64,000 nt of DNA from Escherichia coli (GTDB lineage: Bacteria > Pseudomonadota > Gammaproteobacteria > Enterobacterales > Enterobacteriaceae). The notes under the pieces were generated by a model. That model had not been told where the DNA came from. It searched no databases and was given only the letters and a program-made list of their open reading frames with translations. Numbering within the stretch: position 1 is the stretch's first letter; each line of letters starts with the position of its first letter. This document shows, in pieces, positions 2,291-5,939 of this stretch. The position numbers and the translations under genes were made by a program. The DNA lies in assembly GCF_965641715.1 (NCBI RefSeq), contig NZ_OZ282453.1. One strand, 5' to 3'.

Positions 2291-2468
2291 ATCAGGCGTA
2301 CCCTGAAACGGCTGGAATAAACCGTTTTCAGCGCATTCACCGAAGGAGGGAAAAGGATGCTTCAAATCCCACAGAATTATATTCATACGCGCTCAACGCC
2401 TTTCTGGAATAAACAAACTGCACCTGCTGGAATATTCGAACGTCATCTTGATAAAGGAACGCGCCCGG

Positions 2469-2478
2469 GGGTTTACCC
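2469..2478. repeat. Left copy of the IS186 target-site duplication (gggtttaccc)
   Basis: Identical 10-mer directly abuts both IS ends; GC-rich target, typical for IS186. Confidence 0.7.
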
Positions 2479-3817
2479 CATAAGCGCTAACTTAAGGGTT
2501 GTGGTATTACGCCTGATATGATTTAACGTGCCGATGAATTACTCTCACGATAACTGGTCAGCAATTCTGGCCCATATTGGTAAGCCCGAAGAACTGGATA
2601 CTTCGGCACGTAATGCCGGGGCTCTAACCCGCCGCCGCGAAATTCGTGATGCTGCAACTCTGCTACGTCTGGGGCTGGCTTACGGCCCCGGGGGGATGTC
2701 ATTACGTGAAGTCACTGCATGGGCTCAGCTCCATGACGTTGCAACATTATCTGACGTGGCTCTCCTGAAGCGGCTGCGGAATGCCGCCGACTGGTTTGGC
2801 ATACTTGCCGCACAAACACTTGCTGTACGCGCCGCAGTTACGGGTTGTACAAGCGGAAAGAGATTGCGTCTTGTCGATGGAACAGCAATCAGTGCGCCCG
2901 GGGGCGGCAGCGCTGAATGGCGACTACATATGGGATATGATCCTCATACCTGTCAGTTCACTGATTTTGAGCTAACCGACAGCAGAGACGCTGAACGGCT
3001 GGACCGATTTGCGCAAACGGCAGACGAGATACGCATTGCTGACCGGGGATTCGGTTCGCGTCCCGAATGTATCCGCTCACTTGCTTTTGGAGAAGCTGAT
3101 TATATCGTCCGGGTTCACTGGCGAGGATTGCGCTGGTTAACTGCAGAAGGAATGCGCTTTGACATGATGGGTTTTCTGCGCGGGCTGGATTGCGGTAAGA
3201 ACGGTGAAACCACTGTAATGATAGGCAATTCAGGTAATAAAAAAGCCGGAGCTCCCTTTCCGGCACGTCTCATTGCCGTATCACTTCCTCCCGAAAAAGC
3301 ATTAATCAGTAAAACCCGACTGCTCAGCGAGAATCGTCGAAAAGGACGAGTAGTTCAGGCGGAAACGCTGGAAGCAGCGGGCCATGTGCTATTGCTAACA
3401 TCATTACCGGAAGATGAATATTCAGCAGAGCAAGTGGCTGATTGTTACCGTCTGCGATGGCAAATTGAACTGGCTTTTAAGCGGCTCAAAAGTTTGCTGC
3501 ACCTGGATGCTTTGCGTGCAAAGGAACCTGAACTCGCGAAAGCGTGGATATTTGCTAATCTACTCGCCGCATTTTTAATTGACGACATAATCCAGCCATC
3601 GCTGGATTTCCCCCCCAGAAGTGCCGGATCCGAAAAGAAGAACTAACTCGTTGTGGAGAATAACAAAAATGGTCATCTGGAGCTTACAGGTGGCCATTCG
3701 TGGGACAGTATCCCTGACAGCCTACAAAACGCAATTGAAGAACGCGAGGCATCGTCTTAACGAGGCACCGAGGCGTCGCATTCTTCAGATGGTTCAACCC
3801 TTAAGTTAGCGCTTATG
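2479..3817 (+). mobile_element. IS186 insertion sequence (IS4 family), about 1.34 kb
   Basis: Terminal inverted repeats cataagcgctaacttaagggttg (2479-2501) and its reverse complement (3795-3817); single transposase ORF inside; flanked by a 10-bp direct duplication. Confidence 0.9.
2534..3646 (+). CDS. insL: IS186 transposase InsL
   Basis: ORF 2528-3646; internal ATG at 2534 gives 370 aa, MNYSHDNWSAILAHIG...; lies inside the inverted-repeat-bounded element. Confidence 0.9.
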   Translation: MNYSHDNWSAILAHIGKPEELDTSARNAGALTRRREIRDAATLLRLGLAYGPGGMSLREVTAWAQLHDVATLSDVALLKRLRNAADWFGILAAQTLAVRAAVTGCTSGKRLRLVDGTAISAPGGGSAEWRLHMGYDPHTCQFTDFELTDSRDAERLDRFAQTADEIRIADRGFGSRPECIRSLAFGEADYIVRVHWRGLRWLTAEGMRFDMMGFLRGLDCGKNGETTVMIGNSGNKKAGAPFPARLIAVSLPPEKALISKTRLLSENRRKGRVVQAETLEAAGHVLLLTSLPEDEYSAEQVADCYRLRWQIELAFKRLKSLLHLDALRAKEPELAKAWIFANLLAAFLIDDIIQPSLDFPPRSAGSEKKN

Positions 3818-3827
3818 GGGTTTACCC
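3818..3827. repeat. Right copy of the IS186 target-site duplication (gggtttaccc)
   Basis: Direct repeat of 2469-2478 immediately after the right inverted repeat. Confidence 0.7.
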
Positions 3828-4068
3828 ACGCCTTTCCGTTATGCATGGGGCGGTCAAATATCTCGGCTACGCTGATGAACACAGTGCAGAGCCTGATCAG
3901 GTGATCCTTATCGAAGCGGGGCAGTTTGCGGTGTTCCCTCCAGAAAAGTGGCACAACATTGAAGCCATGACTGACGATACTTATTTCAACATTGACTTCT
4001 TCGTGGCTCCTGAAATCCTGATGGAAGGTGCGCAACAACGGAAAGTCATTCATAACGGGAAATGAATC

Positions 4069-4251
4069 ATGGGCAAAGCAACGTATACCGTGACCGTCAC
4101 CAATAACAGCAATGGCGTTTCTGTCGATTATGAAACAGAGACGCCGATGACTTTGCTGGTGCCAGAAGTGGCGGCTGAAGTGATAAAAGATCTGGTGAAT
4201 ACCGTGCGTTCTTATGACACGGAAAACGAACATGATGTTTGTGGTTGGTAA
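4069..4251 (+). CDS. yoaG: DUF1869 small protein, second gene of the yeaR-yoaG operon
   Basis: 60-aa ORF MGKATYTVTVTNNSNG... directly downstream of yeaR. Confidence 0.85.
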   Translation: MGKATYTVTVTNNSNGVSVDYETETPMTLLVPEVAAEVIKDLVNTVRSYDTENEHDVCGW

Positions 4252-4398
4252 TTATCACTGATCGTTGATGGCGCAATTTCTGCGCCATCGCAAAATAATC
4301 CTCCGTGATGCTCGTCACAAATCTTGCCCTCCCGATGTTGTGCTATGCTTTTTATCAGCGACTAACCCGCTAATGCAAAACAGATAAGTGAGGAAACA

Positions 4399-4647
4399 AT
4401 GGGCATTCTGTCATGGATTATTTTTGGGCTTATTGCCGGTATTCTGGCGAAGTGGATCATGCCAGGTAAAGATGGTGGTGGATTCTTTATGACTATCCTG
4501 CTGGGGATAGTCGGTGCCGTAGTCGGCGGATGGATCAGCACGCTGTTTGGCTTTGGTAAAGTTGATGGCTTCAATTTTGGCAGCTTCGTGGTTGCCGTTA
4601 TTGGTGCGATTGTCGTGCTATTTATCTACAGGAAGATTAAAAGTTAA
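4399..4647 (+). CDS. yeaQ: GlsB/YeaQ/YmgE-family small membrane protein
   Basis: 82-aa glycine-rich two-TM ORF; good RBS (gaggaaaca) upstream. Confidence 0.85.
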   Translation: MGILSWIIFGLIAGILAKWIMPGKDGGGFFMTILLGIVGAVVGGWISTLFGFGKVDGFNFGSFVVAVIGAIVVLFIYRKIKS

Positions 4648-4661
4648 CGCTTAAATTGCAC

Positions 4662-4696
4662 AAAGGCTGCACACAGGCAGCCTTTGCTATTTTTTA
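4662..4696 (+). terminator. Rho-independent terminator after yeaQ
   Basis: Hairpin aaaggctgc / gcagccttt followed by a T-run. Confidence 0.6.
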
Positions 4697-4705
4697 GAGG
4701 TGACG

Positions 4706-4780
4706 TTACCACCATCCCAGCTCAGTGCCGAGTACGACAATAATCGCCACACCCATCATAATAATCGTTGTTTTTTTCAT
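4706..4780 (-). CDS. yoaJ: Small hydrophobic protein (24 aa)
   Basis: Reverse-strand ORF MKKTTIIMMGVAIIVVLGTELGWW; below the ORF-track size cut-off, read by hand. Confidence 0.5.
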   Translation of the reverse strand: MKKTTIIMMGVAIIVVLGTELGWW

Positions 4781-4782
4781 CT

Positions 4783-4881
4783 TTATGCTCCCGGGGCAGC
4801 ATAGCCGCCAATAAAAAACCATGCTAAAAATACGACCGCTGTAATGAAGATTACAACCGGAAAAATAATACCGATTCGCAT
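4783..4881 (-). CDS. yoaK: Small hydrophobic protein (32 aa)
   Basis: Reverse-strand ORF MRIGIIFPVVIFITAVVFLAWFFIGGYAAPGA; read by hand. Confidence 0.5.
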   Translation of the reverse strand: MRIGIIFPVVIFITAVVFLAWFFIGGYAAPGA

Positions 4882-4913
4882 GTTATCACCAATCAAAAGG
4901 ATGTGAATACGCC

Positions 4914-5939
4914 TCAGGAATGTAGCGCTGGATGCGTGACAAAAGGTGTTTTCTGTTTGTGTTTTTTCTCCTGATACATCGCGATATCGGCAGCATGCAG
5001 GGCACTGTCTGCATCGGTCGTTTCAGGATCGACTTCTACTATGCCAAGACTGGCACCGGGATAATACAAATCAACATCACCTAAGTGATATTCTCCACGT
5101 ATTTGCTGTTGAATACGTTCTCGCAGCGACGAAATATCCGCATTCTCGTTGTTTAGTGAAACAACCAAAAACTCATCACCACCGAGACGACCAATAACTT
5201 CGCCATTTTGCTGGAGCGTATTAAGGCGCTCGCCAACCTGAATGAGAAACAGATCGCCACTATTATGACCAAAACGATCATTGATTAATTTGAAGTTATC
5301 CAGATCGATAAACGCGATCATTATCTTATGGTTAAGATGCCGGGCGAGGGAAAACAGCGTCGTCAGATTTTCAAAAATCGCCCGCCGATTCGGTAGCCCG
5401 GTTAACGAGTCGGTATACGATTGCGCAATCAGCGCAGCATTGGCTTCGCGCAGCTGTTCAACCAGTGCCTCTTTTTGAATATATTGTGCAATCAGTCCGG
5501 CGAATAACTGTAAAACCTGTTCCGCGCGTTCACTCCACTGGCGCTTCTCACTGCTGGCGGCGCAAAGCGTGCCATAGAATGATCCATCCGGTAAGTGAAT
5601 TGGCGTGCTCAGAAATGTGGTGATGCCAAGATTGCGTGCCGCAATACAGTCGCCCCAACGGTCAGGGACTTCATCGCTGAAAAAGCAGTTTTCATCAATG
5701 GCGCGTTTGCATAACGAGTAATCCCACGAGACGGTAAAATTCTCCGGGATGTGCATTTTCTGGCTGTTACGGGCAAACATAATATGCTGCAGGCGCGCTT
5801 CGACATCCACTTTGGTCAGGTAGGTTGATTCCATATCAGTGACCATTTCCAGCATCTCCAGAAGCTGTCGGACCAGACTTTCCAGTGACTGTTCTTTGGC
5901 AAGGGATTGCGAGACGCGGGCGATAATCTGATCTGACAC
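4914..5939 (-). CDS. dgcP: Diguanylate cyclase with GAF-like N-domain and GGDEF domain
   Basis: ORF 4914-6068 trimmed to the GTG at 5939 (341 aa, MSDQIIARV...); RLGGDEF motif present. Confidence 0.9.
   Translation of the reverse strand: MSDQIIARVSQSLAKEQSLESLVRQLLEMLEMVTDMESTYLTKVDVEARLQHIMFARNSQKMHIPENFTVSWDYSLCKRAIDENCFFSDEVPDRWGDCIAARNLGITTFLSTPIHLPDGSFYGTLCAASSEKRQWSERAEQVLQLFAGLIAQYIQKEALVEQLREANAALIAQSYTDSLTGLPNRRAIFENLTTLFSLARHLNHKIMIAFIDLDNFKLINDRFGHNSGDLFLIQVGERLNTLQQNGEVIGRLGGDEFLVVSLNNENADISSLRERIQQQIRGEYHLGDVDLYYPGASLGIVEVDPETTDADSALHAADIAMYQEKKHKQKTPFVTHPALHS

Follow-up and report, generated by a model that had tools for sequence, protein, structure and literature searches.

Several small inner-membrane proteins of Escherichia coli are characterised regulators of a larger partner, among them AcrZ (AcrB), MgrB (PhoQ), MgtS (MgtA), CydX (CydAB) and KdpF (KdpABC). 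They are 20–50 amino acids long with a single helix in the inner membrane, and came to light through comparative genomics and tagging. Here we describe two genes for proteins of similar build, yoaK and yoaJ, in a stretch of E. coli DNA of 64,000 nucleotides (contig NZ_OZ282453.1, RefSeq assembly GCF_965641715.1; hereafter the window). An initial annotation made from the sequence alone had reported two tandem genes for very small, hydrophobic, single-helix proteins between yeaQ and dgcP; the two turn out to be yoaK and yoaJ, both annotated already, an identification that we regard as virtually certain. YoaK (32 amino acids) and YoaJ (24 amino acids) resemble the regulators above in size, in inner-membrane location, in having the single transmembrane helix within 50 residues that marks the class, and in how they were discovered. 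However, they have no sequence similarity to any of these proteins and no known partner, and unlike them they are encoded as a coupled pair, adjacent to a gene (dgcP) whose product has no annotated membrane domain. Both are already named, annotated and studied genes and the present finding is a rediscovery; the copy in the window has nothing unusual about it, and YoaK and YoaJ stand as E. coli small membrane proteins that are confirmed as proteins, with function unknown. Taken as a whole, the explanation that these are the known yoaK and yoaJ, a coupled pair whose products act in the membrane, is highly probable.

The yoaK reading frame extends on the minus strand from an ATG at 4881–4879 to a TAA at 4785–4783 and encodes MRIGIIFPVVIFITAVVFLAWFFIGGYAAPGA; yoaJ follows with an ATG at 4780–4778 and a TAA at 4708–4706, and encodes MKKTTIIMMGVAIIVVLGTELGWW. 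The 24- and 32-amino-acid peptides that the initial annotation had translated by hand match these open reading frames (ORFs) exactly, the span it gave (4700–4885) brackets both, and each has, as it had stated, a start codon of its own, the two ORFs being separated by 2 bp (AG). YoaK scored 69.1 bits against NCBIfam equivalog NF033821 (curated cut-off 32), with residues 1–32 on profile positions 1–32, and YoaJ scored 60.4 bits against equivalog NF011343 (curated cut-off 54), with residues 1–24 on profile positions 1–24. Exact-sequence matches were also found in the UniProt/UniRef collection (YoaK; YOAJ_ECOLI). The precomputed Pfam label on the YoaK family is PF28021; a Pfam library lacking a YoaK model gave noise matches only, and the solved structures of the PDB held no match to the YoaK family. 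With sequences identical to the references, full-length alignments and an equal genomic position, the pair shows no difference from the two families, and the window carries their type locus. When positions 4380–5100 were compared by megablast with 5,426 complete E. coli genomes, the locus was found in 5,418, with a median copy number of one place per genome, and a single match covered at least 80% of the query in 5,402. The RefSeq features under these matches, in about 5,400 genomes, are yeaQ, yoaJ ('protein YoaJ'), yoaK ('YoaK family small membrane protein') and dgcP.

Published work has shown that both proteins are made and that YoaJ is inserted into the membrane. Translation, for which the initial annotation had proposed ribosome profiling or epitope tagging, is thus already documented, with detection, membrane insertion and topology in print (PMC4597795, 10.1101/511675, PMC10470546). 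Chromosomally tagged YoaK is visible by immunoblot in both growing and stationary cells; the protein is described as uncharacterised and, within the set of small proteins first identified, as one of the more weakly expressed (Weaver et al., bioRxiv 10.1101/511675). YoaJ is described as a small membrane protein of unknown function, of which an HA-MBP fusion shows integral membrane association and co-precipitates with the intramembrane protease RseP (PMC4597795); the same paper credits Fontaine et al. 2011 with experimental confirmation of a type II (N-in/C-out) topology. The sequence of YoaJ, with MKK at its N-terminus and GWW at its C-terminus, agrees with that topology. Both proteins have been classed as 'class II' RseP substrates: the purified protease cuts them in vitro, and their cleavage in vivo is inconsistent (PMC10470546). 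Both are weak substrates. As an N-terminal fusion, YoaJ has further served as a membrane-anchor tag, with yields in the mg/L range (PMC7558204); that paper likewise gives the N-in/C-out topology. With regard to expression, YoaJ is up-regulated by diamide according to PMC12542507, which cites Hemm 2010 for this, and RyhB lowers ribosome occupancy of yoaK, a novel candidate in the words of its authors, who report no verification (PMC4666370). A list from 2022 still gives both genes as of unknown function (PMC9769844).

Conservation of both ORFs in related genomes, a check that the initial annotation had suggested, was examined in 80 loci, one per species, that were anchored on yeaQ and searched for both peptides. 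The two co-occur in the identical 30 loci, and 49 of the 80 lack yoaK and yoaJ. Together with the E. coli reference locus (L001 in our numbering) these 30 form a set of 31 loci from Escherichia, Citrobacter, Salmonella (enterica subsp. arizonae), Enterobacter and Leclercia; beside yeaQ in the other sampled genera (e.g. Yersinia, Serratia, Pantoea, Erwinia, Tatumella and Klebsiella) nothing rose above noise. yoaK is intact in all 31 syntenic loci and yoaJ, starting with ATG or GTG, in 30. In several chromosomal records of Klebsiella pneumoniae, which came up in a tblastn search of the plasmid collection because they are filed there as plasmids, the order is yoaF, a diguanylate cyclase gene, yoaK and yoaJ with no yeaQ nearby; the Klebsiella YoaK has 33 amino acids, and chromosomal records of K. 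pneumoniae (L083, positions 4001–4072, and L084) carry an intact yoaJ of 24 codons (MKKSTIIMLVVAIVAVAGTQLGWW, 64.9 bits) that is unannotated there. Several multi-megabase or chromosome-content records in PLSDB carry a plasmid label.

ORF size alone is non-significant at this locus, as 70 ORFs of at least 20 amino acids overlap the surrounding 3 kb, and the open-frame control in relatives was non-discriminating, the +2 frame of yoaK being open in 28 of 28 sequences. Because this control failed to separate the frames, the coding call rests on the codon-position pattern and on the ratio of nonsynonymous to synonymous differences per site (pN/pS). Variable alignment columns at codon positions 1, 2 and 3 numbered 13, 7 and 30 in yoaK and 14, 9 and 21 in yoaJ; pooled over the syntenic loci, pN/pS was 0.12 for yoaK and 0.29 for yoaJ, with pS of 0.70 and 0.65, near saturation, and pN of 0.08 and 0.19 respectively. 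yoaK and yoaJ are real protein-coding genes, and purifying selection acts on both across six genera (Escherichia, Citrobacter, Salmonella, Enterobacter, Leclercia and Klebsiella); the conservation check accordingly came out in favour of both ORFs.

In YoaK a two-residue N-terminus (Met-Arg) leads into a hydrophobic core and then a GGYAAPGA tail, and in YoaJ the core is flanked by an MKKTT N-terminus and a G-T-x-L-G-W-W end; the cores are uninterrupted in both, and the grand average of hydropathy is 1.88 for YoaK and 1.22 for YoaJ. Seventeen of the 32 positions of YoaK are invariant even when the plasmid copy (see below) and the Klebsiella copies are counted in (M1, G4, I5, F7, P8, F12, I13, A15, F18, L19, W21, F22, G25, G26, Y27, P30 and G31). 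The invariant residues of YoaJ are M1, K3, T4, T5, A12, G18, G22 and W24, of which G18 and G22, close to the periplasmic end, are spaced in a GxxxG-like manner. The yoaJ frame is broken by an A6 tract in Citrobacter sedlakii NBRC 105722 and in K. pneumoniae strain 176, and by an A8 tract in a Citrobacter freundii record; these variants lie at ~3875 in L013 (C. sedlakii) and at ~4105 in L084 and L085. They may be homopolymer sequencing errors or real slippage or phase variation.

The arrangement of the two genes was also conserved. yoaK always precedes yoaJ and the junction is tight in every pair compared: Escherichia, Citrobacter and Salmonella share a gap of +2 nt, in Enterobacter and Leclercia the genes abut (0 nt), and they overlap by 1 nt (−1, TAATG) in Klebsiella and one Citrobacter and by 4 nt (−4, ATGA) on one metagenome contig. 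The GGGAG that precedes yoaJ is its putative ribosome binding site; the site reads CCGGGAGCA or CCGGGGGCA in most orthologous loci, with a few variants (CCGGGTGCA, CCAGGAGCA and CCTGGGGCA). As the junction always falls between +2 and −4 nt and this site lies inside the final yoaK codons, yoaJ is probably coupled translationally to yoaK, for which such a layout is classic, and the cell may accordingly require both proteins in similar quantity. The yoaJ Shine-Dalgarno sequence coincides with near-invariant codons for the Pro-Gly-Ala of the YoaK C-terminus (window positions 4783–4792, minus strand), and this tail diverges, to TPSG, TPGT, NPGS or IPDGRG, in solo YoaK copies from phages and a plasmid, which have no yoaJ. 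To judge from these tails, the divergence would fit a dual constraint on chromosomal yoaK, for coding and for ribosome binding. GGTGA- or GGTGG-like motifs are found in most orthologous loci at the position equivalent to the Shine-Dalgarno-like sequence of yoaK itself.

A terminator scan of the minus strand found none in the spacer between dgcP and yoaK. Because this spacer is only 32 nt long and has no terminator, yoaK and yoaJ are expected to form the 3' part of the dgcP transcript, and an operon yeaP(dgcP)-yoaK-yoaJ derived from RNA-seq has been reported (PMC4620388). A scan for sigma-70 promoters around the locus gave matches at or below chance; its one minus-strand match, at 4907–4880, was rejected as a yoaK promoter, since transcription would begin inside yoaK. 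Co-transcription with dgcP and coupled translation of yoaK and yoaJ are, on the layout of the locus, quite likely. dgcP lies 30–60 nt upstream of yoaK in 29 of the 31 loci and is also upstream in Klebsiella, and as the Klebsiella pair adjoins dgcP with no yeaQ nearby, the pair tracks dgcP and not yeaQ. yeaQ was rejected as a functional partner on this ground and because 49 of the 80 yeaQ loci lack the pair. In S. enterica subsp. arizonae (L008) and C. sedlakii (L013) dgcP is absent and yoaK-yoaJ is kept, with yoaK behind a region of ~190 nt that is divergent from yoaF. As the pair is retained where dgcP is lost, YoaK and YoaJ are independent of DgcP.

Downstream of yoaJ, the terminator scan gave the GC-rich hairpin between yoaJ and the convergent yeaQ a T-run that is strong towards yeaQ (plus strand) and weak towards yoaJ; the minus-strand RNA fold has a free energy of −23.3 kcal/mol (z = −2.5). 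It is likely a terminator common to both genes.

Homologues of YoaK also occur away from this locus. When 1.84 billion representative proteins were searched with a profile built from 17 YoaK sequences, just 52 clusters matched at E up to 0.001; many of these are frameshifted or mis-started yoaK. Seven divergent full-length members were examined for their genomic context. Five of the seven lie directly downstream of a gene for a CI-type prophage repressor (helix-turn-helix domain, in some cases with Peptidase_S24). This gene diverges from cro/cII or ydaS/ydaT, and the cargo on the 3' side varies (HicAB, a HipA-like kinase, an SDH-type protease and unknowns). In the other two, YoaK follows a GGDEF gene. 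Two of the prophage-type members, L094 and L095, apparently have no standard start codon and may be decaying.

The cultured lambdoid phages HK106, mEp234 and mEp506 carry a 32-codon YoaK-family ORF, MRIGIVFPILVFIVAMGFMAWFIIDGYATPSG (mEp234 and mEp506 by tblastn), which is unannotated in the HK106 and mEp234 GenBank records and which in HK106 scores 54.9 bits on the NCBIfam YoaK model (cut-off 32). Only 6 of the 5,426 E. coli genomes carry this HK106-type copy, a rare one in the species, and there PGAP names it YoaK family. Klebsiella phage ST974-OXA48phi18.2 (MK448237; L091, 2480–2599) has a YoaK-family coding sequence of 39 amino acids, MRIGIAFPASVFIIAVAFLAWFILGGYATPGT, which scores 62 bits; the label 'CI transcriptional regulator' that it carries looks like a mis-annotation. 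A solo YoaK with a strong AAGGAGG ribosome binding site and no yoaJ was found on the IncFIB conjugative plasmid NZ_CP103421 of Klebsiella variicola (L082, 4001–4099), among hypothetical genes and insertion sequence (IS) elements. The motif GGAAGCATGGGTAGACAG occurs just 3' of this plasmid YoaK and just 5' of phage YoaK ORFs (L092 and L088). In another context (L093, 1383–2635) a MASE5-GGDEF gene is overlapped by a solo YoaK, MKIGVLFPIAIIVAAIVFITWFIVGGYATQAS, which is followed by a terminator and by a second, convergent GGDEF gene. On the NCBIfam YoaK model, scores for all the phage and plasmid copies lie between 55 and 68 bits; they lack a YoaJ partner throughout, PHROG and PADLOC models gave no match to them, and no paper mentioning the phage YoaK ORFs was found.

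The HK106 and mEp234 ORFs occupy the same position between cI and Timm as rexA and rexB of phage lambda, and because of this position expression in lysogens is expected. Unlike RexA and RexB, to which it has no similarity, phage YoaK is a single helix of 32 amino acids, and no exclusion or defence phenotype is known for it. Contexts such as these point to a YoaK helix that is portable and that phages may express in lysogens. A further step, that YoaK is a portable module acting on a conserved inner-membrane component of the host and that the chromosomal and the solo phage or prophage copies share this target, is in our estimation quite improbable; if true, YoaK would be a lysogen-expressed membrane peptide with a role in, for example, superinfection exclusion, defence or altered host membrane physiology, and the yoaK of the core genome would be a domesticated or ancestral version.

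What the two proteins do was considered in the light of these data. By analogy with the small regulators named at the outset, we tentatively propose that YoaK and YoaJ serve a larger inner-membrane protein as accessory or regulatory subunits, binding to its transmembrane region, a mechanism which we consider possible but to which we give less than an even chance. The dgcP transcript would carry yoaK-yoaJ in its tail and probably end at the hairpin common with yeaQ; coupled translation would then give roughly matched amounts of the two proteins, YoaJ would sit with its MKKTT N-terminus in the cytoplasm and its G-T-x-L-G-W-W end in the periplasm, and both helices would act within the inner membrane, probably together. 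The hydrophobic single helices, G18 and G22 of YoaJ and the invariant G25-G26 of YoaK would be in keeping with this. Several observations weigh against this proposal: YoaK occurs without YoaJ on the plasmid, in phages and after the MASE5-GGDEF gene, and as such solo copies exist YoaK is not strictly dependent on YoaJ; co-transcription with dgcP cannot be universal, since S. arizonae and C. sedlakii have no dgcP; no partner, phenotype or complex is known, the co-precipitation of HA-MBP-YoaJ with RseP being the only one reported (PMC4597795); and papers from 2022 to 2025 still give no function for either protein (PMC9769844, PMC12542507). The initial annotation had noted that such peptides often modulate neighbouring membrane proteins; a role on a neighbour is doubtful here because yeaQ is unlinked in Klebsiella and DgcP has no annotated membrane domain. 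The linkage to dgcP could instead mean that YoaK, with YoaJ, is tied to signalling by cyclic di-GMP (c-di-GMP), for instance through an effect on the site or timing of membrane signalling by DgcP-type cyclases. The close spacing to dgcP in nearly all yeaQ-anchored loci and in Klebsiella, where yeaQ is elsewhere, would be in keeping with this, as would the RNA-seq operon (PMC4620388), the metagenome contig in which a GGDEF gene precedes yoaK-yoaJ, and the solo YoaK overlapping the end of a MASE5-GGDEF gene that differs in architecture from DgcP. However, the pair is intact and constrained without dgcP in S. arizonae and C. sedlakii, GGDEF neighbours are absent at the phage and plasmid copies, and with just two to five cytoplasmic residues exposed the peptides would presumably offer little surface for binding a cyclase that has no annotated membrane domain; a c-di-GMP link is therefore unlikely. 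The choice of experiments could be guided by four facts: yoaK and yoaJ are tightly coupled, the pair is linked to GGDEF genes, it persists where dgcP is missing, and YoaK stands alone in the lambdoid operon that lysogens express.

Toxicity, the other role raised in the initial annotation, would make YoaK and YoaJ type I-like membrane toxins whose accumulation damages the inner membrane. Like Hok, Ldr, Ibs, TisB and ShoB they are short, very hydrophobic, single-helix inner-membrane peptides, and phage YoaK paralogs are found beside HicAB or HipA-like toxin–antitoxin genes. Type I toxins, by comparison, have a patchy, often multi-copy or mobile distribution, whereas yoaK and yoaJ are near-universal, single-copy core genes in E. 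coli, with conserved synteny and purifying selection across genera and only rare mobile YoaK paralogs. They also differ from the toxins named in having no sequence similarity to them and no detected antisense RNA: a search of both strands of positions 4200–5300 at E up to 1, covering known families only, found no Rfam family, and a promoter-like site on the opposite strand at the locus was within chance expectation. RseP is a point in common with the Hok proteins, as it degrades the toxin HokB and also cleaves YoaK and YoaJ in vitro (PMC10470546). Native YoaK and YoaJ, unlike type I toxins, appear to accumulate without harm; tagged YoaK expressed natively accumulates in growing and stationary cells (10.1101/511675), and YoaJ anchor fusions at mg/L and HA-MBP or FLAG fusions have been expressed with no toxicity reported (PMC7558204, PMC10470546, PMC4597795). 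We consider a toxin function highly improbable. An even smaller probability attaches to the view that the ORFs have no function of their own, either mattering only in cis, by protecting or terminating the 3' end of the dgcP mRNA, or being chance ORFs. Very short ORFs abound in the surrounding 3 kb and other frames are likewise open in relatives, but amino acids are conserved at loci where synonymous sites are saturated (pS ~0.65–0.70 against pN 0.08–0.19), more than half of the YoaK residues are invariant out to the plasmid and Klebsiella copies, the YoaK family recurs in unrelated genomic contexts and the proteins have been detected experimentally (PMC4597795, 10.1101/511675). The constraint at the amino acid level effectively excludes this view.

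Table 1. Coordinates of yoaK, yoaJ and associated features in the window, and of YoaK-family members in prophage and phage records
Feature	Position	Strand	Description and basis
yoaK coding sequence	4783..4881	-	32 amino acids + TAA; single-helix small membrane protein; direct sequence reading, RefSeq WP_001219350.1
yoaJ coding sequence	4706..4780	-	24 amino acids + TAA; single-helix N-in/C-out small membrane protein; direct reading, RefSeq WP_001386836.1; topology from PMC4597795
Shine-Dalgarno-like GGTGAT	4885..4890	-	5' of yoaK start; direct reading
Shine-Dalgarno-like GGGAG	4788..4792	-	For yoaJ, 7-nt spacer, within yoaK codons Pro30-Gly31-Ala32; direct reading
yoaK stop/yoaJ start junction	4781..4785	-	TAA + AG (4782-4781, 2-nt spacer), then ATG; probable translational-coupling site
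A7 homopolymer	4771..4777	-	Immediately 3' of yoaJ ATG; direct reading
dgcP stop to yoaK start spacer	4882..4913	-	32 nt, terminator-free; direct reading and terminator scan
GC-rich hairpin	4661..4686	both	Between convergent yoaJ and yeaQ; terminator scan, RNA fold
dgcP (yeaP)	4914..5939	-	341-codon GGDEF diguanylate cyclase gene, directly upstream of yoaK; annotation of 99.9%-identical locus
yeaQ	4399..4647	+	82 codons, GlsB/YeaQ/YmgE family membrane protein; convergent neighbour, context only; sequence and annotation
Prophage-type YoaK members	L087 3001-3105; L088 3001-3099; L094 2501-2611; L095-L097 2501-2602; L098 2501-2650		0-15 nt 3' of a CI-like repressor gene
HK106 YoaK ORF	L092 1562-1660 (EF120461); L090 2501-2599 (NC_019768)		Between cI and hicA, within annotated pRM-to-Timm immunity operon

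On the far side of yeaQ from the pair, the region ~2357–4065 of the window contains an IS4-family element (IS421 in matching genomes; transposase ORF on the plus strand at 2528–3646) that is inserted in yeaR. The insertion splits yeaR into a 5' fragment (~2357–2479) and a 3' fragment (~3817–4065), leaving yoaJ and yoaK untouched, and the same IS421–yeaR junction is also present in 196 of the 5,426 complete E. coli genomes.

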